A stretch of 64,000 nucleotides of DNA from a virus (taxonomy: Duplodnaviria; Heunggongvirae; Uroviricota; Caudoviricetes), in the IMG/VR virus record IMGVR_UViG_3300037468_000575, positions 1 through 64,000 of that record; one strand, written 5' to 3'. Position 1 is the first letter of the stretch. Each line of letters opens with the position of its first letter. Position numbers and translations under genes: made by a program. Shown here piece after piece: positions 3,803 to 20,319 of the stretch. The notes below the pieces were generated by a model, which searched no databases, was not told where the DNA came from, and worked only from the letters and a program-made list of their open reading frames with translations.

Positions 3803-5447
3803 CTATTAACCCGCCTGTCTCAGCTATTTTAGATATGTTCTCTTGAATGTCTCCCATAACCATCTGGTTTAAGTCCGCCTCTGGTGTTTTAAAGTTCGTA
3901 TTAACATGTGCCACTAGATCATCAAGAGACTTGGAGTGACTGCTGGTATCTAACATAATACCTTGTGGATCATACTTCTTAACATAGAAACATAATGCTG
4001 ACGCCAAAGCTAAGTCATCATGACAGTCCTGGTCAGCTTCAACCCTTCCATTCTTCTTCTGAATCAAGCCAGCTAACTCTAAAGCTAACCGCTCACTCCG
4101 AATGATCTCAGGGAATTGGCTCACATACGCATATAATGCATCTATCATCAATGGTCTAGTTTTTATATTATTACTTAAACCAGAAACTCTATTCTCTTCC
4201 CCTCTCTTTTCTCTATAAACCATCCATCCATATTCACTATCCTCTAATTCTTCTATTACTTGATTACCATATGAATTACTTTCAACTACAATGATCCCTG
4301 GATAATCATTTGCTGCAACCTTTGCAACTTTGACTAGGTCTTTGATTTTTCCTTTATGTTGATATTCCCACACTTGTTCTAATGTTTCATAATCCCAGAC
4401 AGTTATCCCAGATTTATCTAGTCCATTTTCTGGTGCTGAATCTATTCCTATAATATATCTCTTCAAGGACTCTGGTAAACTAAAGACCCAGATTTCTCCA
4501 TTAAACATTTTATAGATATTAATTGGTTTCTTAACACAGTTTTGAACTGTTTCTATAGTTTGAGCATCAAAGAATGATCCTTCAGTTGGTAAGAACTTTA
4601 ACTCTAATTCTTGTGCTATCTTTCTTGCATCATTATCAAATAGAGCACATTGATTCTTATACCAATGTGGATCATGTGCTAACTCTGGTATTTGTTTCCA
4701 ATGAATAGTAAATGGTTTGAATATATCATCTCCAGTTAAAGAGTTACTATATCTCTTAAAGAAGAATTTACCTACACCTACTGTTTTATTTGGAGTTGAC
4801 AATATAATAGTTCCATAAGGGATATTCTTAGCTCTTGCTTGTTTTTGGTTTGTACTTAAAGCTGGTACCATAGCTGTCCAAGCTTCTTCTATATAATTAA
4901 CGAATGCAGCTTCATCTATAACTAAGAGTGTAATTGCTTTTCCTCTAAGAGTTTTAGTTGGAGCATTTGGTGCTACTGTTGATGCATATACTTTAGATCC
5001 ATTTGTTAATATAAATGATTGCTCAGTTCTTTTAGCAAATCCTCTACCTGATTCTCCACCTTTTGGTTTCATCCATTCAGGTAGTTTCTCTACCATTCCT
5101 CTAATTGCGCGAGCAAAATCTGTAGCTTCTTTTCCATCTTTACTTATTAAACCAACTACTACATTATCATAAAAGATAACTAACCATGCTGAATATGCTT
5201 GAATGATAGTTGATATTCCTATTTGTCTACTCTTTAATGTAATGACATAATGTTCTTTATGTAGTAAGTTTATTAATTCATTTTGTTTTTGATATGGTTT
5301 GAATAATTGATCTCCACCTGGTAATTCTAAATAGACATACGTCATACAAAAGTAATTAAAATTAGTTTTACATTTCATAAACTCAGAAACATAGTATTGG
5401 GCTTTTTGAGTTTGTTGACTAGTGATTTGATGTATTTGTTGGGCCAT
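3774..5447 (-). CDS. terL: terminase large subunit (T4 gp17-like)
   Basis: Walker A-like LKSRQIGISTII (cf. T4 SRQLGKT), Walker B ITLLVIDEAAFV, C-terminal nuclease region IIGIDSAPENGLDKSGITVWD; 557 aa. Confidence 0.85.
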   Translation of the reverse strand: MAQQIHQITSQQTQKAQYYVSEFMKCKTNFNYFCMTYVYLELPGGDQLFKPYQKQNELINLLHKEHYVITLKSRQIGISTIIQAYSAWLVIFYDNVVVGLISKDGKEATDFARAIRGMVEKLPEWMKPKGGESGRGFAKRTEQSFILTNGSKVYASTVAPNAPTKTLRGKAITLLVIDEAAFVNYIEEAWTAMVPALSTNQKQARAKNIPYGTIILSTPNKTVGVGKFFFKRYSNSLTGDDIFKPFTIHWKQIPELAHDPHWYKNQCALFDNDARKIAQELELKFLPTEGSFFDAQTIETVQNCVKKPINIYKMFNGEIWVFSLPESLKRYIIGIDSAPENGLDKSGITVWDYETLEQVWEYQHKGKIKDLVKVAKVAANDYPGIIVVESNSYGNQVIEELEDSEYGWMVYREKRGEENRVSGLSNNIKTRPLMIDALYAYVSQFPEIIRSERLALELAGLIQKKNGRVEADQDCHDDLALASALCFYVKKYDPQGIMLDTSSHSKSLDDLVAHVNTNFKTPEADLNQMVMGDIQENISKIAETGGLIDVLSWYKKQ

Positions 5448-5524
5448 ACTATTAATATATTCTCCCTTTTCATGATTCTACTTTATTATTTGTTCCAGTT
5501 ATTTATCATCTTTTAAACAAAAAA

Positions 5525-5560
5525 AATAGAGTTAGTTTTAACCATAACTCTATTTTTTTT
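5525..5560 (-). terminator. factor-independent terminator hairpin
   Basis: AATAGAGTTA-10nt-TAACTCTATT, flanked by an A-run and a T-run. Confidence 0.55.
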
Positions 5561-5595
5561 GTACCTGAACGGAACGTAGATTCTTAGCCGGCAAC

Positions 5596-5916
5596 TTATG
5601 CCTCAGGATTCTCCATATTCAACATAGACAAATCTAAATGATCCTGATGGGGATGTATATCCGGTTGACATTTCGTGTTAATAGAACTGAGCATTGTCTC
5701 TACGAATATCCTAGTATTCAAAGAGAGAACTTCAAGAATATCTTTCTTCTGTTTTTCAGATAACTCGGAAGACAATAATGTTGATAGCTCTTTAGCTCTT
5801 TCAATTACTCTCTGCCAGCCGGTATTGTAAGGATCTTCTGGGCAGCAACCTAGTATATCTTTCAATTTCTCTGGATGTCTTTTTCTCCATTCCCTTTGGT
5901 ATTCTGCACTAGCCAT
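5596..5916 (-). CDS. hypothetical protein (106 aa)
   Basis: ORF upstream of terminase; separated from it by a hairpin terminator. Confidence 0.45.
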   Translation of the reverse strand: MASAEYQREWRKRHPEKLKDILGCCPEDPYNTGWQRVIERAKELSTLLSSELSEKQKKDILEVLSLNTRIFVETMLSSINTKCQPDIHPHQDHLDLSMLNMENPEA

Positions 5917-6005
5917 AAATTGTTCCTTTCATGTTTTAGATTTTCACTATTTTGAAAGTAGAAAGCTGTTAGGAAAACCAACTACTTCCTAACAGCTTTC
6001 TACAC

Positions 6006-6233
6006 TTATACTAAGTAAACTCTGTAACTGGTTTGTGGGCGTACATCAATTTTCCACTTTGCATGACAGGAATCACAAGTACATGTTTGATTGTCAATAT
6101 CCTGTATAATGTTTGGTGGAGCATCTTCTTCGGTATAACTCTTCATGTGACTGCCATTAGCCTGTGACTGAACCTCGACAGAAATCCCCCCACACCTTGG
6201 ACATCTCAACCACACTGAATCATACAATCCCAT
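6006..6233 (-). CDS. small zinc-ribbon protein
   Basis: CPRCGG ... CTCDSC pairs; ATG at 6233 preceded by AAAGGAGGG; track start 6278 is TTG. Confidence 0.45.
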   Translation of the reverse strand: MGLYDSVWLRCPRCGGISVEVQSQANGSHMKSYTEEDAPPNIIQDIDNQTCTCDSCHAKWKIDVRPQTSYRVYLV

Positions 6234-6276
6234 AAGTCCCTCCTTTAATGGATGCAATAAATAGTTCTTTCCTACC

Positions 6277-6291
6277 AATTAATATATATAG
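6277..6291 (-). promoter_or_regulatory. conserved AT-rich promoter-like motif (plus-strand reading AATTAATATATATAG)
   Basis: ~27 nt upstream of RBS/ATG of gene 6006..6233; same 15-mer at 9056, 14144, 63875. Confidence 0.5.
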
Positions 6292-6321
6292 TAGGATACT
6301 ATCTAATTTCAAACAAAAAAC

Positions 6322-6355
6322 TAGAGTTAGTTTGTTTGAACCTAACTCTATTTTT
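6322..6355 (-). terminator. terminator hairpin, near-copy of the 5525 element
   Basis: TAGAGTTAG-11nt-CTAACTCTA + TTTTT; A-run upstream. Confidence 0.55.
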
Positions 6356-6485
6356 GCCTTCTTGTTAAAAGTAACATAGAGAGTTCCTGTAAAAAAAAAG
6401 TATTTGTCATATGAATCCAAAGAATAGAATAACTGCAAGTATTATAAGTTCATCTTTCATCATTATATCTCTTTCTCTTTCTTGA

Positions 6486-6499
6486 TATATGTAGATATA
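6486..6499. promoter_or_regulatory. variant of the promoter-like motif (ATATATGTAGATAT)
   Basis: Shares ATATATGTAGATA with the 16671 copy; lies upstream of terminator 6322-6350. Confidence 0.3.
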
Positions 6500-6521
6500 G
6501 TCAGATATACAGAGATTAGAA

Positions 6522-6731
6522 CTAACTTATAAACTTCTTATAACCGGGATTTGATAACTGTCGAAATTTGTCACATATATTATATTCGCATGTTATCTTA
6601 ACAAGACATTCTTTACAAGGACAATCTACTTGTTTCTTAAGACGTATGAAACTGCAATGACCCTCTATATAACAACCATTACATTCTATAGGGGTAGAAA
6701 TCATTTTAGTAACTACTTGATTGATTTCCAT
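6522..6731 (-). CDS. Cys-rich microprotein family member 1 (CPCxxC[LI][VI]K)
   Basis: ECNGC...HC...DCPCKECLVKITCEYNIC. Confidence 0.5.
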   Translation of the reverse strand: MEINQVVTKMISTPIECNGCYIEGHCSFIRLKKQVDCPCKECLVKITCEYNICDKFRQLSNPGYKKFIS

Positions 6732-6928
6732 CTACCCTCCAAAGAACGATCATATACATAGACTGAGGTGCTATGAAATCTAGCCATTGTTGTCTCAAAT
6801 ACTTGACATACATTATTTTCACACATTGTTTTTACAAGACATTCTTTACATGGGCAATCTTCTTCTCTCTTATAATGTTGTACAATACATGGAGGGTCTT
6901 GGATACAACCTTCACATTCTTTTAACAT
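6713..6928 (-). CDS. Cys-rich microprotein family member 2
   Basis: MLKECEGC...PC...DCPCKECLVKTMCENNVC. Confidence 0.5.
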   Translation of the reverse strand: MLKECEGCIQDPPCIVQHYKREEDCPCKECLVKTMCENNVCQVFETTMARFHSTSVYVYDRSLEGRWKSIK

Positions 6929-6962
6929 ATGATTATCTCTTGTTTTGAAAACATTCGTATTC

Positions 6963-7151
6963 TTACTCGGACTGTTGAATCCGTACTAGCTCATCAATAC
7001 TAGATGTAAGAATTTGATATGGATGACAAATGTCACTACAAATACCTTTAATGATACAGGTTTTACAAGGACAATCGTTTTGTCTATTGTTTATACGAAT
7101 CTCACATTTAAGGGAACCTTCTGAACAATCTTTACATTCTTTTATCATCAT
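6963..7151 (-). CDS. Cys-rich microprotein family member 3
   Basis: MMIKECKDC...KC...DCPCKTCIIKGICSDIC; AAGGA RBS. Confidence 0.5.
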   Translation of the reverse strand: MMIKECKDCSEGSLKCEIRINNRQNDCPCKTCIIKGICSDICHPYQILTSSIDELVRIQQSE

Positions 7152-7170
7152 TTATCCTTCGAAAGGAAAA

Positions 7171-7204
7171 AATAGGATTAGCTCAACCACAATCCTATTT
7201 TTTC
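7171..7204 (-). terminator. terminator hairpin
   Basis: AATAGGATT-11nt-AATCCTATT + T-run; A-run upstream. Confidence 0.5.
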
Positions 7205-7398
7205 CTTGTAGTCCATTGTTGTAATAAATTGGTGTTTCGTTCTGAACAGGTTTTACTGCATACAACTTTAACGATACAGGTTTTACAAGGGCAACCTGGA
7301 CTGACATCTAACATGTAGCACCATTTAAACATACACCCTTGACATTCTTGTTCTAATTTTTGTCTACCCTCGCTAGAGTTTGTATTTACATTTATCAA
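7195..7398 (-). CDS. Cys-rich microprotein family member 4
   Basis: ECQGC...WC...GCPCKTCIVKVVCSKTC. Confidence 0.5.
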   Translation of the reverse strand: MINVNTNSSEGRQKLEQECQGCMFKWCYMLDVSPGCPCKTCIVKVVCSKTCSERNTNLLQQWTTRKK

Positions 7399-7774
7399 TA
7401 ATGTTATTCCATTCCCTGCCCAATTTGTCTATATCAGGATTCAAAACCTCTCGTTGACCCTGTCCGTCATTAAGATCTATAAATACCTTCGGAGGCTGAT
7501 CCTTGGATGATCTAAACTTCTCAGTATCTTCATCAGCAGGAGATTCATTTGAGAAAAGTAATGAACTCATCTCTGTAAGAAGGCTTTGGATATCGATCAC
7601 AAGTTTAAGAACAGAGGATTCAAAATATGTAAGTATTTTTGGTTCTCTTGTTCCCGAATCGATTAGTTCTTTGATCTCTTTGATATACGGGGGTTCACCC
7701 TTATTCAACATGTTAATCCTCCCTTCGTTTTTGTGATTCGTCATAAATTTGTTTGGCGTCTTTAATTGCCTCAT
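7373..7774 (-). CDS. hypothetical protein (133 aa)
   Basis: ORF; interrupts the Cys-rich array. Confidence 0.4.
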   Translation of the reverse strand: MRQLKTPNKFMTNHKNEGRINMLNKGEPPYIKEIKELIDSGTREPKILTYFESSVLKLVIDIQSLLTEMSSLLFSNESPADEDTEKFRSSKDQPPKVFIDLNDGQGQREVLNPDIDKLGREWNNIIDKCKYKL

Positions 7775-8216
7775 CAGTTATGTCAGGCCCCTCTTGCGGA
7801 CCTAGGCTTTTATCCCAATCCAGAAATTTCTTTAGATCATGAGACATGGTCCGTTTCTCACAACCTGGATCTTTTTCTTCTTCAGGATGACACGTATCAT
7901 CAAGCTCTTGCTCATGCGTATAATCAAGTCCGCCATTAGGATCAAACATATCATCTGATCCAGCCATTGGGTCGTGTTTGGTAGGTTTCCTAGTCATAGA
8001 CGATTCCTTTTCAGTTAGTTGTTGTATACTGAGAATGACTCCAGAATGGATTGCACAAACTACATCGTCCACGGGTTGACCATCTTTTTCCAGATACCAG
8101 CGTTGGTGATTGGTATTTAATTCATCCATTTTGGGGTGTAGTTCCTCTAGCGTTTCGCCCACCGCTTCCTCTTGATATGTAGTACCGCAGTTCATTGACG
8201 CAAATAATACAAACAT
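7713..8216 (-). CDS. acidic hypothetical protein (167 aa)
   Basis: ORF; Asp/Glu-rich. Confidence 0.45.
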   Translation of the reverse strand: MFVLFASMNCGTTYQEEAVGETLEELHPKMDELNTNHQRWYLEKDGQPVDDVVCAIHSGVILSIQQLTEKESSMTRKPTKHDPMAGSDDMFDPNGGLDYTHEQELDDTCHPEEEKDPGCEKRTMSHDLKKFLDWDKSLGPQEGPDITDEAIKDAKQIYDESQKRRED

Positions 8217-8229
8217 AGATCGTCTCCTT

Positions 8230-8451
8230 TTAATCTTTTTTCTTAGACTTTTTTAGTCTATAAGTTCTATTATATTGTGACCGTTTAACTTTTTGTTGCG
8301 GAATCCATTTCTCCTTCCACTGAGGATGCCAATCAAACCATTGTCTTTTATATTCTTTTGCTGAGTTTATTTTATTAAACTTCATGATTTCTTTATCTGC
8401 CGGTGCCAATTTGAAACTACATTCTCCATTTGGGTGAATCGTAATCAGCAT
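8230..8451 (-). CDS. small basic protein (73 aa)
   Basis: ORF; Lys/Arg-rich C-terminus. Confidence 0.35.
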   Translation of the reverse strand: MLITIHPNGECSFKLAPADKEIMKFNKINSAKEYKRQWFDWHPQWKEKWIPQQKVKRSQYNRTYRLKKSKKKD

Positions 8452-8463
8452 TCTTTTCTCCTT

Positions 8464-8670
8464 TTATGTTCTATTTTTCCTTCGTGATTCAATCGCAATC
8501 TTCTTTTTATTTCCTCTTTTCTTTCGAAAGATTCTCTTCAAAGGTGACTGACTGAATTTCACTTTTCTCATGGTAGTTCCTAATCCTCCTATTCTATCAA
8601 GAACATCTGGTGCAAATGGATCATCTTCTTTGAATGGTTCTAATTTATGTAATAAGAACAATTGATTCAT
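8464..8670 (-). CDS. small basic protein (68 aa)
   Basis: ORF; KKRGNKKK tail. Confidence 0.35.
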   Translation of the reverse strand: MNQLFLLHKLEPFKEDDPFAPDVLDRIGGLGTTMRKVKFSQSPLKRIFRKKRGNKKKIAIESRRKNRT

Positions 8671-8691
8671 AATACTCCTGTTTTCTCTTGT

Positions 8692-9012
8692 TTATGGTTC
8701 AAGTGACTTCAATGCATATTCAAGCATCTTTAGAGCCCCGTGATACCATTCTCTCGCTCCAGGATGGGTTTGACAAACTAGTATATCTTTGAAATAAAAA
8801 TATTTATCTGTTTGATACCTTTGATATCTTGCACCGCAAACGAAGCATGGTTGAACTGGTTCGTTTTGATATATGTTTCGGCCTCCGTCTTTTCTTAAAA
8901 CAATGCGTTTATTTTCGAGAACGATATCTATTTCCTTGACTTTCCCTAGTTTTTGTACTACCAGCTCCAACTTTTTTATCTTATCAGATTTGCATACTTT
9001 TTTGTTCTTCAT
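8692..9012 (-). CDS. hypothetical protein (106 aa)
   Basis: AAGGAGAG RBS; promoter motif ~45 nt upstream; CFVCG...C..H. Confidence 0.45.
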   Translation of the reverse strand: MKNKKVCKSDKIKKLELVVQKLGKVKEIDIVLENKRIVLRKDGGRNIYQNEPVQPCFVCGARYQRYQTDKYFYFKDILVCQTHPGAREWYHGALKMLEYALKSLEP

Positions 9013-9055
9013 TACACTCTCCTTGAATAAATGTTTAGGGTTAGATCTTTCAATT

Positions 9056-9070
9056 AATTAATATATATAG
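9056..9070 (-). promoter_or_regulatory. conserved promoter-like motif
   Basis: AATTAATATATATAG; ~28 nt, then AAGGAGAG RBS, then ATG of 8692..9012. Confidence 0.5.
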
Positions 9071-9081
9071 GAATATCATTG

Positions 9082-9264
9082 TTACTTAGATCGAAAATAA
9101 TTTCTGGCGTCGCAAAATACACCACATGTAATTTTCACAAGACATTCCTCACATGGGCACGTTTCGGCTATCGTAAAAACGGAATAGTGATATCCGCAAA
9201 AAAACCAATGTGTACATCCTTCACATCCATTCTTCACTGGAGTTACTTCTGAAATACTCATCAT
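9082..9264 (-). CDS. Cys-rich microprotein family member 5
   Basis: GCEGC...FC...TCPCEECLVKITCGVFC. Confidence 0.5.
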   Translation of the reverse strand: MMSISEVTPVKNGCEGCTHWFFCGYHYSVFTIAETCPCEECLVKITCGVFCDARNYFRSK

Positions 9265-9448
9265 GCCTCCGATTACAAATAAATTCTCTCCATATCCACC
9301 ATAGTGAACAGCTATGCATACATGTAACTTTTACAATACATTCTTGGCATGGACAACTTTCTATGTGTTCTGGATGTCGGTCACGTATGAAACATACCGA
9401 GGTGTGACAATTACTGCATAATATTTTTATTGTATCCAATTGGCTCAT
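9221..9448 (-). CDS. Cys-rich microprotein family member 6
   Basis: CSNC...VC...SCPCQECIVKVTCMHSC. Confidence 0.5.
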   Translation of the reverse strand: MSQLDTIKILCSNCHTSVCFIRDRHPEHIESCPCQECIVKVTCMHSCSLWWIWREFICNRRHDEYFRSNSSEEWM

Positions 9449-9675
9449 TTCCTTATTAATTCACTGAAGTTTTGGATGTTCTTAAACCATCTCCACGATG
9501 TTCTTGGTTCACATGCTACAGTACAATTTATTTTAATAATACATTCTTGGCATGGACAATTTTCTATTTCCTGTGGATACGTTCGATAAACCAAACACAT
9601 ATGAATTGATGGACATTCCCTACATAATGTTATAGGATTCATTTTAAATACGTCCGTCCAACAAACCATCTCCAC
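9445..9675 (-). CDS. Cys-rich microprotein family member 7
   Basis: CREC...MC...NCPCQECIIKINCTVAC; true start probably internal M (MNPITLC). Confidence 0.5.
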   Translation of the reverse strand: MEMVCWTDVFKMNPITLCRECPSIHMCLVYRTYPQEIENCPCQECIIKINCTVACEPRTSWRWFKNIQNFSELIRK

Positions 9676-9899
9676 GATGCTCGTTGGTCACATTGAATAC
9701 TACAATTTATTTTAACTATGCATTTTCGGCATGGACAATTTCTTACTTCATATGTAAATTCTTTCTGAATCAAACATTCATGAACATGTTTTAAATGAGT
9801 ACAACCATTACAACCTAGGTTTTTTTTACTTATAGTATTCATTCTGCACCTTAGTTTTAACAAACCACGACGAATATGATCTTTCTTTACATGGATCAC
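9639..9899 (-). CDS. Cys-rich microprotein family member 8
   Basis: GCNGC...EC...NCPCRKCIVKINCSIQC; start probably internal M. Confidence 0.5.
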   Translation of the reverse strand: MIHVKKDHIRRGLLKLRCRMNTISKKNLGCNGCTHLKHVHECLIQKEFTYEVRNCPCRKCIVKINCSIQCDQRASWRWFVGRTYLK

Positions 9900-10077
9900 T
9901 ACAAATCATTTTAATAATACATTCTTGGCATGGGCAAGTTTTTATATATTCTCGATAACCATTATAAATCAAACAACAATGAATTGATGGACATTCCCTA
10001 CATAATGTTATAGGATCCATTTTACTTAGACCACAACTTAGATCCAACAAACCATCGCCACGATGCTCGTTGGTCAC
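9826..10077 (-). CDS. Cys-rich microprotein family member 9
   Basis: CREC...CC...TCPCQECIIKMICSDPC; start probably internal M. Confidence 0.5.
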   Translation of the reverse strand: MTNEHRGDGLLDLSCGLSKMDPITLCRECPSIHCCLIYNGYREYIKTCPCQECIIKMICSDPCKERSYSSWFVKTKVQNEYYK

Positions 10078-10267
10078 ATAGAATAGTACAATTTATTTTA
10101 ACTATGCATTCTTGGCATGGACAATTGCCTATTTCCGTTATATAATCTCTACAAATTAAACATCCGTTCAAATGATTTAAATAATCACAACCTTTACACT
10201 CTATGTTCATATTAACTAGACCCCATTCGAAGTGTGTCAAACCATTGCAATGACATTCTGTTTTCAC
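10022..10267 (-). CDS. Cys-rich microprotein family member 10
   Basis: ECKGC...GC...NCPCQECIVKINCTILC; start probably internal M. Confidence 0.5.
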   Translation of the reverse strand: MKTECHCNGLTHFEWGLVNMNIECKGCDYLNHLNGCLICRDYITEIGNCPCQECIVKINCTILCDQRASWRWFVGSKLWSK

Positions 10268-10400
10268 AACTCCTACTACAAATTATTTTAATAATACATT
10301 CTCCACATGGACAATTTTCTATTTGGGTTGCATCATATTTCTCAATCAAACATCCATTCAAATAGTCTAAATAACTACACCCATTACAATCAGGTTTCAT
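10212..10400 (-). CDS. Cys-rich microprotein family member 11
   Basis: MKPDCNGC...GC...NCPCGECIIKIICSRSC. Confidence 0.5.
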   Translation of the reverse strand: MKPDCNGCSYLDYLNGCLIEKYDATQIENCPCGECIIKIICSRSCENRMSLQWFDTLRMGSS

Positions 10401-10410
10401 CTTAAAGATT

Positions 10411-10611
10411 TTAGCTACTCCTACGTTGTTGATCTACTTCTAACAATCGATCTGTCCAAGTCTTCTCTCTGTTGTGACATCTCTCCCAACAAGTCGTTTT
10501 TACTAAACAGTCTTTACATGGACAGTTATTTATTTCTTCTGGCCACCATGGTTCTTTAATAAGATAACAATATCCATTACTATTTAGGTTACAATTTGCA
10601 CATTCTTTCAT
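10411..10611 (-). CDS. Cys-rich microprotein family member 12
   Basis: MKECANC...YC...NCPCKDCLVKTTCWERC. Confidence 0.5.
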   Translation of the reverse strand: MKECANCNLNSNGYCYLIKEPWWPEEINNCPCKDCLVKTTCWERCHNREKTWTDRLLEVDQQRRSS

Positions 10612-10777
10612 TCACAAGCATCGATTCCCTAAGAAGTTTTCGAGCTTTACACATGTCTATACAAAGTACTTTTATTAAACATTCTGTACATGGACATAAG
10701 TATTGATAGTTTCGTTGCGAAGAAAGTAGAATACAAGCAGTGTAAATTTTTCGGAAACAGGTTTCACATGCTTCCAT
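10589..10777 (-). CDS. Cys-rich microprotein family member 13
   Basis: MEACETC...AC...LCPCTECLIKVLCIDMC. Confidence 0.5.
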   Translation of the reverse strand: MEACETCFRKIYTACILLSSQRNYQYLCPCTECLIKVLCIDMCKARKLLRESMLVNERMCKL

Positions 10778-11003
10778 TTGTTATCACCTCCAAATGAACA
10801 ATTTTACTATTATCTCCATTTGTTATGGTCTCTTCCAATATTTGGCCTGTAATCCAAAACAAAAATCGTTTACGACATACTAATGAACAAGTTGGTTTAA
10901 GGAGACATTCTATACATGGACAAAATGAGGGAATCCTCTTGTGTTCAAAAATACTACAATATTTGATTATAATAAGGTTACATCCTTGGCATTTGTTTTC
11001 CAT
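10764..11003 (-). CDS. Cys-rich microprotein family member 14
   Basis: MENKCQGC...YC...FCPCIECLLKPTCSLVC. Confidence 0.5.
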   Translation of the reverse strand: MENKCQGCNLIIIKYCSIFEHKRIPSFCPCIECLLKPTCSLVCRKRFLFWITGQILEETITNGDNSKIVHLEVITNGSM

Positions 11004-11009
11004 TATTCC

Positions 11010-11255
11010 TCAACACCACGCCGGAAGAATGGCTGTAATTTTATTCCTGTTCGAGCATAGTTTTGAACAATTGCTTTTTACAAGGCATGATTTACATGGA
11101 CAATTTTTATAGTAGATTGTAGATAATGAATGAATGGAACACCAATCCTTCAGCATTTGACTACATGTGTTGAAACATTTAATTTCATCTTCATTACTTA
11201 ACATCGGTGATTCCTCCAATACGATCTCTTGCTTTTTTATACTCAACACGTTCAA
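11010..11255 (-). CDS. Cys-rich microprotein family member 15
   Basis: CFNTC...WC...NCPCKSCLVKSNCSKLC; start probably internal M. Confidence 0.5.
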   Translation of the reverse strand: MNVLSIKKQEIVLEESPMLSNEDEIKCFNTCSQMLKDWCSIHSLSTIYYKNCPCKSCLVKSNCSKLCSNRNKITAILPAWC

Positions 11256-11490
11256 AGCTGGACCAAACTAACAGTCTGTTTGCGCATACTACAGTACAAG
11301 TTACCTTTATTATACATTGTTTACATGGACAGATTTTGAGTATTTCTAGATAGTCCATCTGCTGATAAATAAGACAATATTTGATTCCTGTTGTATCCAA
11401 CAATAGCTTGCAAGTGAGACATTCATTATGAAGTTCGTTCGATTTCTTTAACATGTCCGTGCCTCTTTCCTGTCTCCGTAATAGAATCAT
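11194..11490 (-). CDS. Cys-rich microprotein family member 16
   Basis: ECLTC...YC...ICPCKQCIIKVTCTVVC; start probably internal M. Confidence 0.5.
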   Translation of the reverse strand: MILLRRQERGTDMLKKSNELHNECLTCKLLLDTTGIKYCLIYQQMDYLEILKICPCKQCIIKVTCTVVCANRLLVWSSFERVEYKKARDRIGGITDVK

Positions 11491-11704
11491 AATATAAATG
11501 ATAAAACTTAGTTAGATATTTTATTCTGATAGTACAATTATGACTACAATTTACTTTTAGTATACAGTCTTTACATGTGCATCTCTTTACAAAGCTTGTT
11601 GATAAACTCGCAAATCGTGAATAATAACAGTGTTTAACGTGTATACATCCATAACATTCTGTAGATTGTCTGTTTGGTATAAACATCATACTTCCCATGC
11701 CCAT
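11426..11704 (-). CDS. Cys-rich microprotein family member 17
   Basis: ECYGC...HC...RCTCKDCILKVNCSHNC (CTC variant). Confidence 0.5.
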   Translation of the reverse strand: MGMGSMMFIPNRQSTECYGCIHVKHCYYSRFASLSTSFVKRCTCKDCILKVNCSHNCTIRIKYLTKFYHLYYDSITETGKRHGHVKEIERTS

Positions 11705-11877
11705 GTTCTATCTATTAGCGTATATGCAAACATTTGTCGGATAAGACATACGGAGTTACAACATACATTGATCAGACATTCTCTACATGGACACTCATCA
11801 CTCCCTGGAAAGCAGGCTATTAGACAATATTCTGTTTTAAAATGTTCTAAACATTCAGATTTACATGTTATTTCCAT
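11686..11877 (-). CDS. Cys-rich microprotein family member 18
   Basis: MEITCKSEC...YC...ECPCRECLINVCCNSVC. Confidence 0.5.
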   Translation of the reverse strand: MEITCKSECLEHFKTEYCLIACFPGSDECPCRECLINVCCNSVCLIRQMFAYTLIDRTWAWEV

Positions 11878-11883
11878 TATATC

Positions 11884-12108
11884 CTACCTCTGCATGTTAC
11901 TACGAATGTTAATATAGAAATGTTTTCTTTTATTACATACGTTTGAACACATTATTCGAACAAGACATTCTATACATGGGCAATTCTTAAACACTTTATG
12001 ATTATAATTAGTTTTTCCACAATGATTAGCAACTCCACATTCTTTTTTACATTTCGGATCATGCAACTTTTTATAAAATATCTTTGAAAAAATATTTCTT
12101 ATTATCAT
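11884..12108 (-). CDS. Cys-rich microprotein family member 19
   Basis: KCKKEC...HC...NCPCIECLVRIMCSNVC. Confidence 0.5.
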   Translation of the reverse strand: MIIRNIFSKIFYKKLHDPKCKKECGVANHCGKTNYNHKVFKNCPCIECLVRIMCSNVCNKRKHFYINIRSNMQR

Positions 12109-12308
12109 TTAAATACCATCTTGTTTTTGAATGATCGTAGTCTTATGTTTGTTGGATAATTTAGTCTACTTGGACATGCTTGAGAACATGTTATATGTAT
12201 TAAACATTCTTTACATGGACATTCCAACATTAATATGATGGAATCAATCAGTTGTGGTAGTCCACACAAAAAGGAATTTGAACAAGTATTTTGACATTTG
12301 GATTTCAT
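12105..12308 (-). CDS. Cys-rich microprotein family member 20
   Basis: MKSKCQNTC...LC...ECPCKECLIHITCSQAC. Confidence 0.5.
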   Translation of the reverse strand: MKSKCQNTCSNSFLCGLPQLIDSIILMLECPCKECLIHITCSQACPSRLNYPTNIRLRSFKNKMVFK

Positions 12309-12520
12309 TTAGGATCCTTTAGATCAATTTGATTAGTAAAAAAATGTGTTCTAGACTTACATATATTTGAACATATCATTTGTACTATACATATTTTACA
12401 TGGACAATTCTTCTTCCAAGTTGTTAAATATTTAGCATGCACGCTATACATTACACACCACTGGCTATGACTACACCTATCTTTACACCTCTCTTTATGT
12501 GTTTTTTTAGTTTGCTTCAT
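12305..12520 (-). CDS. Cys-rich microprotein family member 21
   Basis: RCKDRC...WC...NCPCKICIVQMICSNIC. Confidence 0.5.
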   Translation of the reverse strand: MKQTKKTHKERCKDRCSHSQWCVMYSVHAKYLTTWKKNCPCKICIVQMICSNICKSRTHFFTNQIDLKDPK

Positions 12521-12521
12521 A

Positions 12522-12734
12522 TTAAATATTCCTGTATTCTCCAGTTTTTAGTGCCTTGGTAATCTGCTCTTCGACAAACCTAATTCGTGGACGACACTGG
12601 TCTGAACACATTATTCGAACAATGCATTCAATACATGGACAACTACTATAATTTATGTAACCAAATCCATACTTATTTATTCCACACCAATTATTAAACC
12701 CACAGCAAGCATCACTCCCAGTACATTTTATCAT
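12522..12734 (-). CDS. Cys-rich microprotein family member 22
   Basis: MIKCTGSDACC...WC...SCPCIECIVRIMCSDQC. Confidence 0.5.
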   Translation of the reverse strand: MIKCTGSDACCGFNNWCGINKYGFGYINYSSCPCIECIVRIMCSDQCRPRIRFVEEQITKALKTGEYRNI

Positions 12735-12743
12735 TGATTTTTC

Positions 12744-12941
12744 TTAATATCCTCGTTTTTCAAAAAAATTGGAGCTAATCTTCAACCAGAAATCTTTTCT
12801 AGTTTGGCAAGTTACGATACATGTAACTTTAATAATACATTCCATACATGGACATAGGGATGTCCGATTATAGTCTTTTTCTAAATAAAATGTAATATGA
12901 CAAGGTCTATTGTAACACTGTCTACAAGTTTCACAATGCAT
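12744..12941 (-). CDS. Cys-rich microprotein family member 23
   Basis: MHCETCRQC...PC...LCPCMECIIKVTCIVTC. Confidence 0.5.
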   Translation of the reverse strand: MHCETCRQCYNRPCHITFYLEKDYNRTSLCPCMECIIKVTCIVTCQTRKDFWLKISSNFFEKRGY

Positions 12942-13156
12942 CAGCGTTTCGTCCTATTGTTTTTTTGAGGATAAATTTGTGCTCCAAATGCGAGATCTCT
13001 AAATTTCTGCCAGTAACCTCTTCTTTTACGACATGTAGTACTACAAATAACTTTTACGATGCATTCTAGACAAGGACAGCTAGTCGACATGAGGTTCGAA
13101 TACAATTTAATCTCACACTGATTGATGTTACAACTTTTAGACTGTTCACAACTCAT
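12941..13156 (-). CDS. Cys-rich microprotein family member 24
   Basis: MSCEQSKSC...QC...SCPCLECIVKVICSTTC. Confidence 0.5.
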   Translation of the reverse strand: MSCEQSKSCNINQCEIKLYSNLMSTSCPCLECIVKVICSTTCRKRRGYWQKFRDLAFGAQIYPQKNNRTKR

Positions 13157-13205
13157 ATTATATTCCTTTCTACTGATATATCAATTAATTCACTGATAGA
13201 GATTC

Positions 13206-13436
13206 TTACAGTTCTTGATACCACAACCACATCACATCTTTACGGAGGCTCCACCATAAAACATCTCTCTCTTGACATTTGACACAACAAGTTATTTTTA
13301 TAATACAATTACAACATGGACATCTGTCTGAAAAAAGTTTAGTAAACCGAACGTCACACTCGTCTTTAAGACGACCTCTGTGACAATCCAAATACTGATT
13401 ACAATAATTTATACCATTCCTATCAAAATCTTCCAT
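13206..13436 (-). CDS. Cys-rich microprotein family member 25
   Basis: YCNQYLDC...EC...RCPCCNCIIKITCCVKC. Confidence 0.5.
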   Translation of the reverse strand: MEDFDRNGINYCNQYLDCHRGRLKDECDVRFTKLFSDRCPCCNCIIKITCCVKCQERDVLWWSLRKDVMWLWYQEL

Positions 13437-13539
13437 TTCTTTATAAATTCCTTTTCAGAACTGCCTTTTATACACGTCAAATTGGTTATAACTCATATTG
13501 TCTCCATTTCTAAAAATTCAAAAAAATAACCTTTATAGA

Positions 13540-13645
13540 AGTGGAGGTCTTGATTGAGTCATAGTAGCTCTTATGCAGCTTTTTCGACCTTATGGGCACA
13601 CATAAGAATATTCCCATTCTGTCTAGACTCAAATCAAGACCTCTG
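13540..13645. repeat. 17-18-bp long-range inverted repeat enclosing a ~70-nt multi-hairpin segment
   Basis: GAGGTCTTGATTGAGTC ... GACTCAAATCAAGACCTC. Confidence 0.6.
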
Positions 13646-13678
13646 CGCCAATCGGCAACTCTGTTAGCGACGTCCGAA

Positions 13679-14101
13679 TCACAGCGGACATTCGATCGGC
13701 ACCAGCTTCCCCATGGAAGCTGAAAAACGTTGATACGGGTGTAATGTGTTTTTGTTTATTTTATCTTCATTTCTTAGTTTGATATAATGAAGATGATCCA
13801 ACAACCCAAATCCGTTAATGAAATCATAGAGATTATCCATCGTTGAAAAAGGTCCAATAATAAACTCTTTCCCATCTTTCATTGACATAATGTCAAGGTT
13901 GTGCTCTTTATTCAAATGGAGCAGCTCTTCTGCAGTGGGATAACCTAAACTAAGAATTACCCCAACATCGCGAGATACTTTTGTTGAACTAACCATATTG
14001 GAGTAAAACATATAACCCATTAGGCCTGTGAATATTAGAATACATAGAACTCCAATGCTAGAACCAGTATGCTTGTTGCGCTTGAATCGATTTGTTCTCA
14101 T
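13679..14101 (-). CDS. membrane protein (140 aa)
   Basis: TM helix IGVLCILIFTGLMGYMFY; AGGGGG RBS; promoter motif ~43 nt upstream; 3' end runs into the GC-rich island. Confidence 0.5.
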   Translation of the reverse strand: MRTNRFKRNKHTGSSIGVLCILIFTGLMGYMFYSNMVSSTKVSRDVGVILSLGYPTAEELLHLNKEHNLDIMSMKDGKEFIIGPFSTMDNLYDFINGFGLLDHLHYIKLRNEDKINKNTLHPYQRFSASMGKLVPIECPL

Positions 14102-14143
14102 TTTTTCCCCCTATGTTTAAGAATCAAATATTTCCTTCTCACA

Positions 14144-14158
14144 AATTAATATATATAG
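14144..14158 (-). promoter_or_regulatory. conserved promoter-like motif (extended TTCCTTCTCACAAATTAATATATATAGA shared with 63862-63890)
   Basis: Between terminator 14187-14216 and ATG 14101. Confidence 0.55.
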
Positions 14159-14186
14159 AAGTTCTACCATTTAAGAAACAAAAAAA

Positions 14187-14220
14187 ATGTAGTGTCTAAG
14201 GAAAGAGACACTACATTTTT
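14187..14220 (-). terminator. strong bidirectional terminator hairpin
   Basis: ATGTAGTGTCT-aaggaaag-AGACACTACAT, with A8 upstream and T5 downstream. Confidence 0.65.
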
Positions 14221-14223
14221 CTA

Positions 14224-14556
14224 TCACTTGACCTTTTGTTGGACCTTTTTCTTCACTATTTGTAATTCTTTTAGGTTGGTAAGTCGATATAAAGCTTTAA
14301 CAAGATTCTTAATATCAAGATTCTTAATATTTTGTTTCGAGTTATCTTTTAACATGATTTCATCAAGTTTGTTTATCATCGACTCTACAAAATTTTGTAT
14401 AACTAACTTTCGCAACTGATGTAGAACATCTACCTGAGATTTACAATCACATATCTCGATAAATTTTGTTAGAGCCTGTTTCTGTTGCATTAGATTTTGA
14501 CACATAACAAGAAGATCTATAAACGAGTTAGTATCTAGATCAAACTTTTTTTCCAT
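14224..14556 (-). CDS. hypothetical protein (110 aa)
   Basis: ORF followed immediately by strong hairpin terminator. Confidence 0.45.
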   Translation of the reverse strand: MEKKFDLDTNSFIDLLVMCQNLMQQKQALTKFIEICDCKSQVDVLHQLRKLVIQNFVESMINKLDEIMLKDNSKQNIKNLDIKNLVKALYRLTNLKELQIVKKKVQQKVK

Positions 14557-14858
14557 TGTTTTATAATCCTCTGGGCATTCATGACTATAGTCGCTACTGG
14601 TATTTTAACACATGGACATTCTATATAAATTAATTTCGAGTCGTAAGAAGAATAGATTCCAATTTTCTTACCAAATATATTATAACATTTCCAATGAGGA
14701 TTGGTGTTTAAGATTAAGTTGTTACTTCTAAACCGATATACCTGAAAAGGACACCGAAATTGTTTCTGATCATCGTTTCTTCTTAACCATCTTTTTATGC
14801 CTTTAATATCAGTTTTTGTTGGTTGATATTTAACGCGTTTTATTTTATTATAATTCAT
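14535..14858 (-). CDS. basic hypothetical protein (107 aa)
   Basis: ORF; contains ECPC. Confidence 0.4.
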   Translation of the reverse strand: MNYNKIKRVKYQPTKTDIKGIKRWLRRNDDQKQFRCPFQVYRFRSNNLILNTNPHWKCYNIFGKKIGIYSSYDSKLIYIECPCVKIPVATIVMNAQRIIKQWKKSLI

Positions 14859-15232
14859 ACCTTCATTTCCCTTTCTTGCCCTCTTGTTTTAATTATCATT
14901 CCAATATTGGATTCACCTTCTAGGGCTTCTGTGGTTGTGACCTTTTTCAATAACCATCGATTCAAGAAATATGCACCAACAAACAACATTGATGATACAA
15001 TAATGATCATTAGACAAACTAAGGTAATCATAAATCCTAATAACCAGGTCATGAATAGAGTTGGATCACGCATATTGAAAAACATAGCCATGTAGTATGG
15101 AATAAAAGCCAGTCCTGTACAGATGATAACTGTACTAATAAGATTCAACAAGCTTTTCAGATGTTGTATTTTCATTTTTTTCTCCATGAAATTTTGGACG
15201 GTTGCGATACCATGTAAGATATCTTCTTCCAA
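14855..15232 (-). CDS. membrane protein (125 aa)
   Basis: Two or three predicted TM helices; start uncertain because it overlaps 15135..15332. Confidence 0.45.
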   Translation of the reverse strand: MEEDILHGIATVQNFMEKKMKIQHLKSLLNLISTVIICTGLAFIPYYMAMFFNMRDPTLFMTWLLGFMITLVCLMIIIVSSMLFVGAYFLNRWLLKKVTTTEALEGESNIGMIIKTRGQEREMKV

Positions 15233-15332
15233 AGCGAAACCACTTTATGAATGAGAAATCACTTCCAATAAATACTGCTTTAAAAAAGACAAGATAGATG
15301 ACAACCTTCATTACTGATGTTAGAATATCCAT
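15135..15332 (-). CDS. small membrane protein (65 aa)
   Basis: Hydrophobic ORF adjacent to the stop of the upstream gene (15335). Confidence 0.3.
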   Translation of the reverse strand: MDILTSVMKVVIYLVFFKAVFIGSDFSFIKWFRFGRRYLTWYRNRPKFHGEKNENTTSEKLVESY

Positions 15333-15334
15333 TT

Positions 15335-15682
15335 TTATTCTTCCTCTTCCATGTTAAAATAATCTACCCATGACACTCTCTCATCTAGCAATCTCTGTAT
15401 GTCAACTTTACAAGTCTCATCTAGTTTGACTACACATAGCGACAGATTATTCTGAATTTTTCTCGGTCCTATAAATGCTAGTTCAGTATCTTCGTCAGCT
15501 GGTAGAAACAAACTTTCACCATTGTCATTACCTGGCAGAAAATCAGTTCTTCCATATTCATCGCAGATTGAATATCCGCTCAAAGGTTGGGTATGAGAGG
15601 CTAGTTTGATAGTTTGAAATGGTTGGTGATTAGAATATTCGCCATTCCAATTTTGAGATAAAGTAAATAGTAAAAGTGACAT
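15335..15682 (-). CDS. hypothetical protein, paralogue of the C-terminal half of 15777..16454
   Basis: Shared NGEY...GYSxCDEYGRTxFLPG...LFLPAxDDTExAFIG. Confidence 0.5.
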   Translation of the reverse strand: MSLLLFTLSQNWNGEYSNHQPFQTIKLASHTQPLSGYSICDEYGRTDFLPGNDNGESLFLPADEDTELAFIGPRKIQNNLSLCVVKLDETCKVDIQRLLDERVSWVDYFNMEEEE

Positions 15683-15723
15683 AAAATTCTCCTTTTATTT
15701 TGGTGAAAAAATAGGAACCTTAT

Positions 15724-15763
15724 GAACCTATAGCATACAAGTTTCAGTGTATGCTATAGGTTC
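15724..15763 (-). terminator. long perfect hairpin (15-bp stem)
   Basis: GAACCTATAGCATAC-10nt-GTATGCTATAGGTTC, directly after stop of 15777..16454; T-run 8 nt after on the minus strand. Confidence 0.45.
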
Positions 15764-15776
15764 ATCTGAGAGACCA

Positions 15777-16454
15777 TTATCGATCGATTAGTTCTTTGTT
15801 GTTTTCTTCGATTGACGGATCGTGCTTTACAACCAACCACGTTTTTTTATCGAGTTCAACCTTTTCTCCAATAAAAGCCCACTCCGTATCATCATTTGCT
15901 GGAAGAAATAGGCAGGCGTCTTCTTTATGTATTAATCCAGGAAGGAAAGAAGTTCTGCCATACTCATCACATGATGAGTACCCACGCTTTGCAGGATGAT
16001 CTTGATCAACAAATTCGATAACTTGATAAGGTATTAGGTCCGGATATTCCCCATTCACATTTTGGAACAAGTTGAACATCAAAAGTGATTCTTTTTCCAT
16101 GACTGGTTCCTCCTTGTAGTTTCGTGTTTCGAGATCTTGAGATTTTGTTGCAGCATCTACATTTTTCCAGAAGTCTCCTAAATCCGGGATCGTATCACAG
16201 AAATAAATTACAAAGAGATAATCTGGATCGCAGTGTATTGTCACATACTGTGGACCACATCCTTGATCATCATCACAAAGGTCATTATCACAAAGGTCCA
16301 GCGCGGTGATCTTCTTAAAGAACTCGAACCTCAAGCCTATTTTTGCTCCTTCTTGGATCATGACTGGAATTATCGATATAGATCTTTGACCTAGACCGCA
16401 GTTATCATCCATAGAAACATAATGTTCTTGTACTTCATGTCCCTCTATTTGCAT
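15777..16454 (-). CDS. hypothetical protein (225 aa), C-terminal domain paralogous to 15335..15682
   Basis: Same motif block; followed by 15-bp-stem hairpin. Confidence 0.55.
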   Translation of the reverse strand: MQIEGHEVQEHYVSMDDNCGLGQRSISIIPVMIQEGAKIGLRFEFFKKITALDLCDNDLCDDDQGCGPQYVTIHCDPDYLFVIYFCDTIPDLGDFWKNVDAATKSQDLETRNYKEEPVMEKESLLMFNLFQNVNGEYPDLIPYQVIEFVDQDHPAKRGYSSCDEYGRTSFLPGLIHKEDACLFLPANDDTEWAFIGEKVELDKKTWLVVKHDPSIEENNKELIDR

Positions 16455-16662
16455 TCTTCCCCTCCTTTCTCCTGGTTAAAGGTTTTTCCATACAATCCAA
16501 CAAATTTACCCTTATGCATTTCTTTCTCATGTTTTTCAAGGCTTAGTTGAGCTTCTGTAAGCGATACAAAGTCACTTTGTTCGAGATTACATAATTCACA
16601 TTTAATATATATCATCTTGATTGAAACCTCGTTTTAAAAGTATTGCTAAAAGATTTCTTCCC

Positions 16663-16680
16663 AATTATTAATATATGTAG
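16663..16680. promoter_or_regulatory. variant promoter-like motif (AATTATTAATATATGTAG)
   Basis: Lies between a small minus ORF (ATG ~16615) and the plus ORF 16731; orientation ambiguous. Confidence 0.35.
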
Positions 16681-16730
16681 ATACTATCAATTCTATTTAG
16701 AACAATTATTAAAAGAAGGGATATTCTTCC

Positions 16731-20317: not shown

Positions 20318-20319
20318 CG

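Follow-up and report, generated by a model that had tools for sequence, protein, structure and literature searches.

We describe here an array of genes for small cysteine-rich proteins in a 64,000-nt stretch of phage DNA (positions 1 to 64,000 of IMG/VR record IMGVR_UViG_3300037468_000575; hereafter, the window). On the minus strand between 6522 and 13436, the open reading frame (ORF) listing and our re-annotation of the window both give exactly 25 intact ORFs of one family, interrupted once, at 7373-9012, by five ORFs without family signal. These counts reproduce those of the initial annotation, which had reported 25 consecutive minus-strand ORFs split once by five unrelated genes. Every array protein carries the eight-cysteine scaffold C-x2-4-C-x5-9-C-x12-17-C-P-C-x2-C-x5-C-x3/4-C, in which hydrophobic residues and a lysine occupy the core (C-P-C-x2-C-[LI][VI]-K-x2-C-x3(4)-C). 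The scaffold is thus present in all 25 copies as first described, but the core is not quite invariant, because one copy, m09, has CTC replacing CPC. The array lies in a lineage-specific accessory island (5448-16915, minus strand) between two conserved genes, that for a 442-aa protein (16916-18244) and the large terminase gene terL (3774-5447).

Several of the listed ORF starts lay too far upstream, and start codons were chosen beside Shine-Dalgarno (SD)-like sites. With these likely starts the array proteins are 60-87 aa long, and junctions between genes are mostly -4 to +10 nt, including four ATGA-type 4-nt overlaps, with the others ranging from -44 to +49 nt. Numbered in the direction of transcription, and all recognised by the family hidden Markov model (HMM), the genes begin with m01 (13206-13436, 76 aa, E 2e-14) and m02 (12941-13156, 71 aa), which has a sigma70-like TTGATA-16-TATAAT just upstream at 13184-13157. 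They continue with m03 (12744-12941, 65 aa), m04 (12522-12734, 70 aa), m05 (12305-12520, 71 aa), m06 (12105-12308, 67 aa), m07 (11884-12108, 74 aa) and m08 (11686-11877, 63 aa); m06 overlaps m05, and m07 overlaps m06, by 4 nt. Next come m09 (11426-11689, 87 aa, ORF open to 11704), m10 (11194-11454, 86 aa, ORF to 11490), m11 (11010-11204, 64 aa, ORF to 11255), m12 (10764-11003, 79 aa), m13 (10589-10777, 62 aa) and m14 (10411-10611, 66 aa). A young subcluster is opened by m15 (10212-10400, 62 aa) and comprises also m16 (10022-10210, 62 aa, ORF to 10267), m17 (9826-10020, 64 aa, ORF to 10077), m18 (9639-9842, 67 aa, ORF to 9899) and m19 (9445-9642, 65 aa, ORF to 9675), the last with an ATGA overlap with m18. 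The main block ends with m20 (9221-9448, 75 aa) and m21 (9082-9264, 60 aa). Beyond the interrupting ORFs (7373-7774, 7713-8216, 8230-8451, 8464-8670 and 8692-9012, minus strand; 133, 167, 73, 68 and 106 aa), which gave no PHROG match, lie m22 (7195-7398, 67 aa, TTG start), a weak hairpin with a U-run (7155-7190, z -0.9), m23 (6963-7151, 62 aa), m24 (6713-6928, 71 aa) and m25 (6522-6731, 69 aa), the last two with four residues before the final cysteine.

A six-frame scan of the window with the core expression C.C..C.{5}C.{3,4}C returned 27 matches, every one on the minus strand, whose three frames hold 9, 8 and 10 of them, against a mean of 0.015 and a maximum of 1 in 200 shuffles. The family HMM picked out 27 of the 916 six-frame ORFs at E <= 2e-9, the next match standing at E 4e-4, and on the plus strand neither the HMM nor the expression gave a match. 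Cysteine accounts for 12.2% of residues in the members and 1.5% in the other ORFs of the window. Array paralogues share on average 29% of their amino acids and 46% of their nucleotides. No frameshifted copy was found, where a non-coding repeat had been feared to show them as commonly as intact ones, and all 25 copies retain an open frame even though synonymous sites approach saturation (mean proportion of synonymous differences, pS, 0.67). Public gene calls also include the array genes. Protein-level conservation, the use of three frames on one strand, the 25 intact ORFs and these gene calls therefore identify the copies as coding paralogues, as first proposed, and not as a DNA repeat. The recurrent nucleotide core that had been offered as an argument is real but local: the 20-nt AATTGTCCATGYCAAGAATG is present in only six neighbouring copies, a young subcluster at 9339-10316, and elsewhere conservation is confined to the protein level.

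Two further full members stand outside the array on the minus strand, directly downstream of gyrB: one of 79 aa (57095-57334, E 3.5e-14) and one of 96 aa (56801-57091). In addition, two small minus-strand ORFs have a partial motif, namely 44336-44599, a distant relative of the family core with four cysteines in the pattern 'IPCxECLxxxIC...C' (hmmsearch E 4e-4), and 44889-45116. The figure of about 29 members given initially is therefore reached only by adding these two partial ORFs to the 25 array genes and two outlying full members.

Comparison of the island with its counterparts reveals rapid turnover. About two dozen IMG/VR contigs (one of 248 kb) encode a TerL roughly 60-74% identical to that of the window, typically about 63%. 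In the seven tabulated relatives at about 63%, the homologue of gene 16916-18244 lies directly upstream of terL with a gap of about 90-480 nt, and no family motif occurs within +-10 kb of terL in 23 such relatives; in the window the same two genes are 11.5 kb apart (5448-16915), with the array between them. The initial annotation suggested checking related phages for the array, and two closer relatives indeed have one at this site. In L174 (TerL 91% and flanking gene 84% identical) the island measures 7.2 kb and the array has 8 copies, with an orthologue of gene 13679-14101 (140 aa in the window; 26% identity) ahead of the array; L064 (TerL 84%) holds at least 20 copies before its contig ends. 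The interrupting five-ORF block is absent from both. We thus find tandem paralogues in a variable region whose copy number differs among close relatives: 25 in the window against 8, at least 20 and 0.

Across the window, L174 and L064, no array member has a one-to-one orthologue. At best, members reach 58% identity with those of L174 and 33-48% with those of L064, and only 1 of the 25 window members matches L064 better than it matches another member of its own genome. The young subcluster m15-m19 (40-57% identity) corresponds to two genes in L174, which implies duplication in the lineage of the window or loss in that of L174. The array therefore evolves by birth and death, far faster than the genes that surround it. 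Taken together, it almost certainly consists of genuine coding genes that arose by repeated tandem duplication and are quickly gained, lost and diverging in a hyperplastic accessory island. The phage itself is large and uncultivated, has a T4-like terminase and probably infects bacteria.

Beside the island we observed a second lineage-specific insertion, at about 18.3-21.4 kb, with an SPFH/Band-7 gene (18336-19670, minus strand) and its neighbours; the genes flanking it are adjacent in the relatives with 63% TerL identity. Another paralogous family, of about 120-145 aa, has four tandem ORFs at 19937-21447 and dispersed copies at 31321-31719 and 56047-56481 (minus strand). All of its copies match the same L174 protein (12-431), and also proteins in L087, L095 and L148.

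The array of the window is one instance of a large family. When 1.84 billion representative proteins were searched exhaustively with the HMM, 2,581 representative clusters matched at E <= 1e-3; a word-indexed homologue search had been nearly blind to the family (6 and 10 matches). The matches are typically 55-90 aa long with the consensus x5-C-x-G-C-x7-C-x12-CPCxxCLVKxxCxxxCxxR, some are two-domain fusions, and all members that were looked up are unnamed metagenomic proteins. The motif had not been recognised initially as any known zinc-finger or ribbon family, and profile searches matched none either: individual members gave nothing above noise against Pfam, PHROGs and NCBIfam, no Pfam family was matched by more than two of 141 members, and the family profile found no PDB chain at E <= 10. 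Likewise, DNA of the array region had no match in 50,697 GenBank phage records, and tblastn of a consensus-like member and a half-motif member returned none at E <= 1. In the literature on cysteine-rich tandem arrays and multigene families in phages, we found no description of the family.

Degenerate DNA patterns were used to locate members at the nucleotide level. In metagenomes they revealed at least 120 loci with 415 copies, spaced 200-300 bp apart, at a GC content of 24-41% and on a single strand in every one of the loci listed. Of these 120 listed loci, 78 have at least two copies, 28 at least five and 7 at least ten, and one ENA scaffold has at least 61 copies within 14 kb; IMG/VR also holds single-copy members. 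Tandem arrays are therefore the normal organisation of this family in a clade of uncultivated phages. The array of the window, which had been taken for a highly unusual expansion, is one example among many.

Other genes of the window indicate what kind of virus carries the array. The window is phage-like, with all long ORFs on one strand, and encodes a T4-type large terminase, SbcC, SbcD, a helicase, GyrB, GyrA, FolE2, a DUF2201 metallopeptidase/VWA-like protein, two ThiF-family proteins, a protein with a weak JAB-domain match, a GDP-mannose dehydratase and a radical S-adenosylmethionine (rSAM) enzyme. The closest cultured terminase is only 30% identical. The RNA polymerase (RNAP) subunits and FolE2 are of bacterial type, and the phage belongs to an uncultivated clade of large phages that probably infects bacteria. 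Genes for RNAP beta (1015 aa, 28253-31300) and beta' (902 aa, 31721-34429) lie side by side on the minus strand, unsplit and shortened, and are conserved in relatives L169 and L171; to our knowledge, the multisubunit RNAPs known from jumbo phages have split subunits. Beside them is a conserved block of two ThiF-family (E1-like) genes and the weak JAB-match gene (34992-35846, 37303-37977 and 37981-38925, minus strand; also in L169 and L171), accompanied in the relatives by WYL_2 and Rho_N proteins. This block may be a phage module for ubiquitin-like conjugation or deconjugation.

Among 185,579 species genomes, the degenerate-DNA scan found members only on low-GC contigs of three metagenome-assembled genomes (MAGs), two labelled archaeal with clear members and one Sphaerochaetaceae with one doubtful match, and in no isolate genome. 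The contigs with both array and 15-mer (a promoter-like motif treated below) in such MAGs (L041-L046; DAOVGR010000034/22, JAAOXY010000082) carry the labels Thermoplasmatales archaeon and Candidatus Aenigmatarchaeota. An archaeal-virus origin, which these labels raised, was rejected, since FolE2 and both RNAP subunits, beta and beta', clearly belong to the bacterial type. With an RNAP of that type in the clade and no member in any isolate genome, the family contigs in MAGs are most likely mis-binned phage contigs.

In an alignment of 141 sequences, six of the cysteines are invariant, while P31, K38 and the two remaining cysteines each reach at least 90% conservation; an arginine about three residues past the last cysteine is also conserved. 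Loop lengths vary (x5-9 and x12-17), the C-terminal tails are fully variable, and the net charge of the array members runs from -4.5 to +12.8. By eye, no signal-peptide-like or membrane-spanning stretch was seen in the member sequences, and the cysteines are therefore most likely cytoplasmic metal ligands. Each protein is probably a cytoplasmic mini-domain of about 48 residues whose fold is held by its eight cysteines. In the simplest arrangement these would form two Cys4 metal sites in sequence, C1-C4 and C5-C8, with Zn2+ as the likeliest metal. In such a domain the proline, the hydrophobic/basic triplet [LI][VI]K and the arginine would be fixed along with the cysteines, while the loops and a tail of 15-35 aa would be free to vary. 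Secreted disulfide-rich peptides of the knottin type were set aside on the same by-eye reading of the sequences. The knottin-like scaffold suggested initially finds no support either, as the proteins are presumably cytoplasmic and match no known fold. AlphaFold modelling, also proposed at the outset, did yield a model with short helices, but the predicted structure matched nothing in the PDB or BFVD.

Support for two separate sites comes from a second family with half the motif. These proteins (75-100 aa, no Pfam match) have four cysteines, [IL]PC-x2-C-x5-C-x8-14-C, near the N-terminus in the form [IL]PC-x2-C-[ILV]-x3-[ILV]-C...C. They number 57 copies on the fetched family contigs, where they also form arrays of their own (L118/L147, L089, L044, L049, L074, L156 and others; 44336-44599 and 44889-45116 in the window). 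The N-terminal part of their profile aligns with the C5-C8 core of the eight-cysteine family (hhalign probability 89%, E 2e-6). Since this family is homologous to C5-C8 alone, the alignment suggests that C5-C8 is an autonomous Cys4 site and, by elimination, C1-C4 a second. In L169, a 243-aa acidic coiled-coil protein between helicase and SbcD (4393-5124) begins with the family core (CPCKECLVSTTC...C), while its counterpart by position in the window (50653-51240) is without it. Judging from this pair, the core can be fused to other proteins.

The ratio of nonsynonymous to synonymous change (dN/dS) between paralogues, another suggested check, was estimated by the Nei-Gojobori method (NG86) on 14 disjoint pairs that diverged relatively recently; the window supplied 3 of them and the 61-copy array 11. 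The pooled ratio comes to 0.42 for the 17-residue core (bootstrap confidence interval, CI, 0.25-0.81) and 0.80 outside it (bootstrap CI 0.57-1.06), and the variable part reaches 1.15 in the four closest pairs. A comparison of more distant pairs on the multiple sequence alignment gave higher values, which are compromised by alignment uncertainty and saturation. The scaffold and the integrity of the ORFs are thus under strong constraint and the rest is near-neutral on average; the check bears out a constrained core and does not demonstrate positive selection elsewhere.

An exact 15-mer, CTATATATATTAATT, occurs four times on the coding strand of the window (14158-14144, 9070-9056, 6291-6277 and 63889-63875), and its three island copies lie about 43-55 nt upstream of an SD site and ATG. 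The first is a probable transcription start for the 140-aa gene with a hydrophobic N-terminus (13679-14101), which directly precedes the array and probably shares its transcript. Just before this copy, a strong intrinsic-terminator hairpin (14181-14222, minus strand; 17-bp stem and T-run; minimum free energy -19.8 kcal/mol, z = -7.2) closes the upstream transcription unit. For the second copy, the distance to the downstream ATG, that of gene 8692-9012, is 44 nt, and the third copy lies upstream of a Zn-ribbon gene (6006-6278) that precedes terL; the hairpins preceding these two are weak. Three units would follow from this arrangement: m01-m21 co-transcribed with gene 13679-14101 from the 15-mer at 14158-14144; the five unrelated genes with m22, and perhaps m23-m25, from 9070; and the Zn-ribbon gene with terL from 6291. 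A generic scan for sigma70 promoters and terminators showed no enrichment over shuffles, and three of the four candidate hairpins were no better than shuffles. The 15-mer is found in 40 of 168 fetched loci, including terL relatives (in the gap upstream of terL) and many array contigs, and its conservation extends to contigs of the clade that are only distantly related. It is probably a clade-specific promoter, possibly one read by the phage RNAP, and may also mark the border of a PeSL-like cassette.

What might such an array be for? On the best reading, which retains the host-takeover or anti-defence module suggested initially, it would act as a repertoire of differently surfaced, metal-stabilised binders for variable host targets such as those of defence or takeover, and its copy number would expand and contract as a 'genomic accordion'. 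We regard a repertoire that engages variable host targets as a serious possibility, a little short of probable, by analogy with other viruses and given the position in an accessory island, the extreme turnover, the copy-number variation among close relatives and the diversity of charge. A stronger form is possible but doubtful, namely that the eight-cysteine microproteins are an unrecognised class of phage counter-defence or host-takeover effectors, in which a metal-stapled scaffold has its surfaces diversified by birth and death in accordion arrays of 8 to more than 60 genes, forming a binder library in a widespread uncultivated clade of large phages. More broadly, the fast-changing arrays suggest a hitherto unexplored strategy of phages towards their hosts.

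Four observations weigh against a repertoire of host-directed binders. The dN/dS of 0.80 outside the core (CI 0.57-1.06) can be explained equally well by relaxed constraint and by purifying and diversifying selection acting together, so that it does not demonstrate an arms race. AlphaFold predicts the fold with moderate confidence only (pLDDT 66.7 from 141 sequences and 45 from 35). The promoter-like 15-mer of the array also heads the terminase operon, a position that would suit middle or late expression better than early. Finally, single-copy members in replication modules (beside gyrB here, beside a DNA ligase in 11 loci) hint at a DNA-related ancestral role.

In one alternative, the proteins are zinc-finger microproteins associated with nucleic acid or the replisome, acting as small DNA- or RNA-binding proteins or as accessory factors of replication or transcription, and the array is a lineage-specific expansion of such a regulator. 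Members outside arrays do sit in replication modules. The two in the window directly follow gyrB, beside a conserved 97-aa gene (56493-56786) whose adjacency to the 56801-57091 member is repeated in L046 (2871-3590; 55% identity) and whose homologues in L079 and L119 as well make it 49-55% identical across contigs; the DNA ligase is an ATP-dependent enzyme of about 385 aa (PF01068) that adjoins a member in 11 loci, and L010 and L043 also show non-array members with conserved neighbours. We also observed that the non-array members in replication modules look better conserved than the array copies (P0156, for example, shares the GVNSLG tail). A lysine and an arginine are conserved beside the cysteine core, and many members are basic, with charges up to +12.8. 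However, 8 of the 25 members are acidic or neutral, the mean isoelectric point is 7.8 versus 8.5 for the other small ORFs of the window, and Pfam scans of the members gave no match to a known DNA-binding zinc-finger family. Moreover, 25-61 highly divergent copies are hard to square with one nucleic-acid ligand, and we consider this explanation unlikely.

The proteins could instead be stand-alone Fe-S microproteins, a SPASM/Twitch-like module with one or two [4Fe-4S] clusters that serves electron transfer or partners an rSAM enzyme. SPASM domains follow the seven-cysteine pattern CX9-15GX4C - gap - CX2CX5CX3C - gap - C, and the core of the family has exactly the CX2CX5CX3C spacing. Eight cysteines would suffice for two clusters, the phage does encode an rSAM/SPASM-like enzyme (43273-44319), and there are sub-threshold matches to TIGR04085 (SPASM, model positions 56-83) in P0007, a two-domain protein (E 0.011), and P0096 (E 1.2). 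Yet only 2 of 10 members have any SPASM match, the best at 16.1 bits against a 27-bit cutoff, and none of 141 members matches the Pfam SPASM family PF13186 at E <= 1. Solved SPASM enzymes are present in the PDB, where the family profile matches no chain. The full pattern is absent as well: the upstream cysteines are arranged as C-x2-C-x7-C-x12-C in place of the CX9-15GX4C hairpin, the usual GG before the last cysteine is missing, and no conserved cysteine trails the motif. Unlike SPASM proteins, the members are stand-alone at 60-87 aa, with no rSAM core (CX3CX2C) in the same polypeptide, and a protein that serves to hold a redox cofactor would have no use for as many as 25 divergent surfaces. 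As far as the sequences tell, the resemblance to SPASM and Fe-S proteins is at the level of the motif only, and we hold this explanation to be decidedly unlikely.

A metallothionein-like array that buffers metal by gene dosage, in which only the cysteines matter, copies raise expression and the rest drifts neutrally, would agree with the dN/dS of about 0.8 outside the scaffold, whose CI includes 1, and with a cysteine content of 12%. It is nevertheless highly improbable: the proline, [LI][VI]K, the arginine and the windows of loop length are conserved across 141 members from many phages, which argues for a defined fold; dosage is normally raised by near-identical copies, whereas these share 29% identity; and ORFs are intact in all 25 copies despite the mean pS of 0.67.

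Barely tenable is the proposal that the array encodes precursors of ribosomally synthesized and post-translationally modified peptides (RiPPs), matured by the phage rSAM/SPASM enzyme. The model would be prochlorosins, in which one ProcM enzyme serves many ProcA precursors with a conserved leader, a hypervariable core and a linked maturase. As with prochlorosins, dozens of small, diversified, cysteine-containing genes occur per genome, here in tandem and with variable C-terminal tails, and the rSAM gene (43273-44319, minus strand) weakly resembles peptide maturases. It has a SPASM/Twitch-like C-terminus (CNGCNWTC), and its best NCBIfam matches, all far below cutoffs, are such maturases (PapB at E 2e-13, then CXXX-repeat and sactipeptide maturases). 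This sole rSAM gene, however, lies 30 kb from the array and is a core gene of the clade, with 993 homologues at E <= 1e-10 (the best about 50% identical) in a fixed order, SbcD-SbcC-x-rSAM, on contigs of up to 271 kb; these came from a protein database search, a search of IMG/VR for close homologues having returned nothing. In relatives there is no array within +-10 kb of the rSAM gene, and array-bearing loci have no rSAM homologue. The conserved part of the proteins is a mid-protein cysteine scaffold, not a leader, the alignment shows no GG/GA-type cleavage site, and no maturase is linked, all unlike prochlorosins. The RiPP role raised by the initial annotation is accordingly disfavoured. The rSAM enzyme may rather belong to a modified-base pathway of the 7-deazaguanine type, as FolE2 (26936-27820) here and PTPS in relatives suggest. 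Between the rSAM gene of the window and SbcC lies an insertion (44336-44599, 44889-45116, 44560-44922 and 45518-45829) that contains a duplicated two-gene cassette of a four-cysteine 'IPCxEC' microprotein and a protein of about 110 aa.

Finally, a diverged non-coding tandem repeat with incidental ORFs would account for the regular 200-260 bp spacing and the 20-nt core common to six copies, but the regular-expression scan, the HMM scan and the shuffles have already effectively refuted it, as at 46% nucleotide identity the eight cysteine codons, the proline and the lysine are invariant or nearly so, the copies occupy one strand in all three frames with SD sites, start/stop overlaps and no frameshifts, and single-copy homologous genes occur in many unrelated contexts.

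If the array is a repertoire of host-directed binders, it would represent, as far as is known, the largest paralogous gene expansion described in phages, in a family whose thousands of members are unnamed in any database. Such a repertoire would, moreover, be a natural set of metal-stabilised scaffolds of about 50 residues with hundreds of surfaces, of interest for binder engineering and for the discovery of inhibitors that act on bacterial defence or on core machinery. Should the function be another, the family still defines a new small-protein fold and marks an environmentally widespread, uncultivated phage clade with an unsplit RNAP beta/beta' of bacterial type.

Comparable known systems include prokaryotic zinc-finger micro-proteins such as haloarchaeal HVO_2753, which has about 59 aa and four C(P)XCG motifs. 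The array proteins share with these the size class, a cytoplasmic location (presumed for the array proteins), several cysteine pairs and the lack of an enzymatic domain. However, the motifs differ (CPXCG knuckles there, CPC-x2-C-x5-C-x3-C here), the micro-proteins are encoded by single-copy cellular genes, and no homology is detectable.

With regard to genome organisation, T4-type phages have hyperplastic regions and PeSL promoter-terminator cassettes (PMC2839356, PMC4122927). The island resembles these in placing accessory small ORFs between conserved core genes, in blocks bordered by a conserved promoter-like motif: the 15-mer stands at three island-block borders, with only one of the associated hairpins strong. 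Unlike PeSL cassettes, which hold unrelated ORFans, the island contains one expanded family, and its motif, the putative promoter CTATATATATTAATT, is different. Under toxIN selection, T4 also amplifies tifA, a small counter-defence gene, in tandem and thereby overcomes this host system (bioRxiv 10.1101/2022.04.14.488369 / PMC9391042). Segmental tandem duplication of a small gene is common to both cases, and accordion-type expansion does therefore occur in T4-like genomes. While the tifA copies are recent, identical and arose in the laboratory, those of the array are ancient or fast-diverged (29% identity) and belong to a natural, widespread family.

A further parallel comes from large DNA viruses of eukaryotes, with multigene families such as MGF110 and MGF360 of African swine fever virus (ASFV), the former with cysteine-rich proteins, and with the 'genomic accordions' of poxviruses. 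Here as there, tandem and diverged small paralogues occupy variable regions, copy number differs among close relatives and host interaction is presumed. The array differs from these families in belonging to a bacterial virus, in having no apparent signal peptide or endoplasmic reticulum targeting and no sequence or fold relationship to them, and in consisting of much smaller proteins (about 60 aa) with more copies for the size of the genome. A viral multigene family of small cysteine-rich proteins in a hyperplastic region is thus already known in kind. What is new, judged by databases and searchable literature, is the protein family itself, together with how far it has expanded in phages (from 8 to more than 60 copies) and how prevalent it is in an uncultivated clade. 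Were the array a binder library, it would be for viruses of prokaryotes what the multigene families for immune evasion are for giant viruses of eukaryotes, and large phages would likewise maintain fast-evolving multigene families for interaction with the host.

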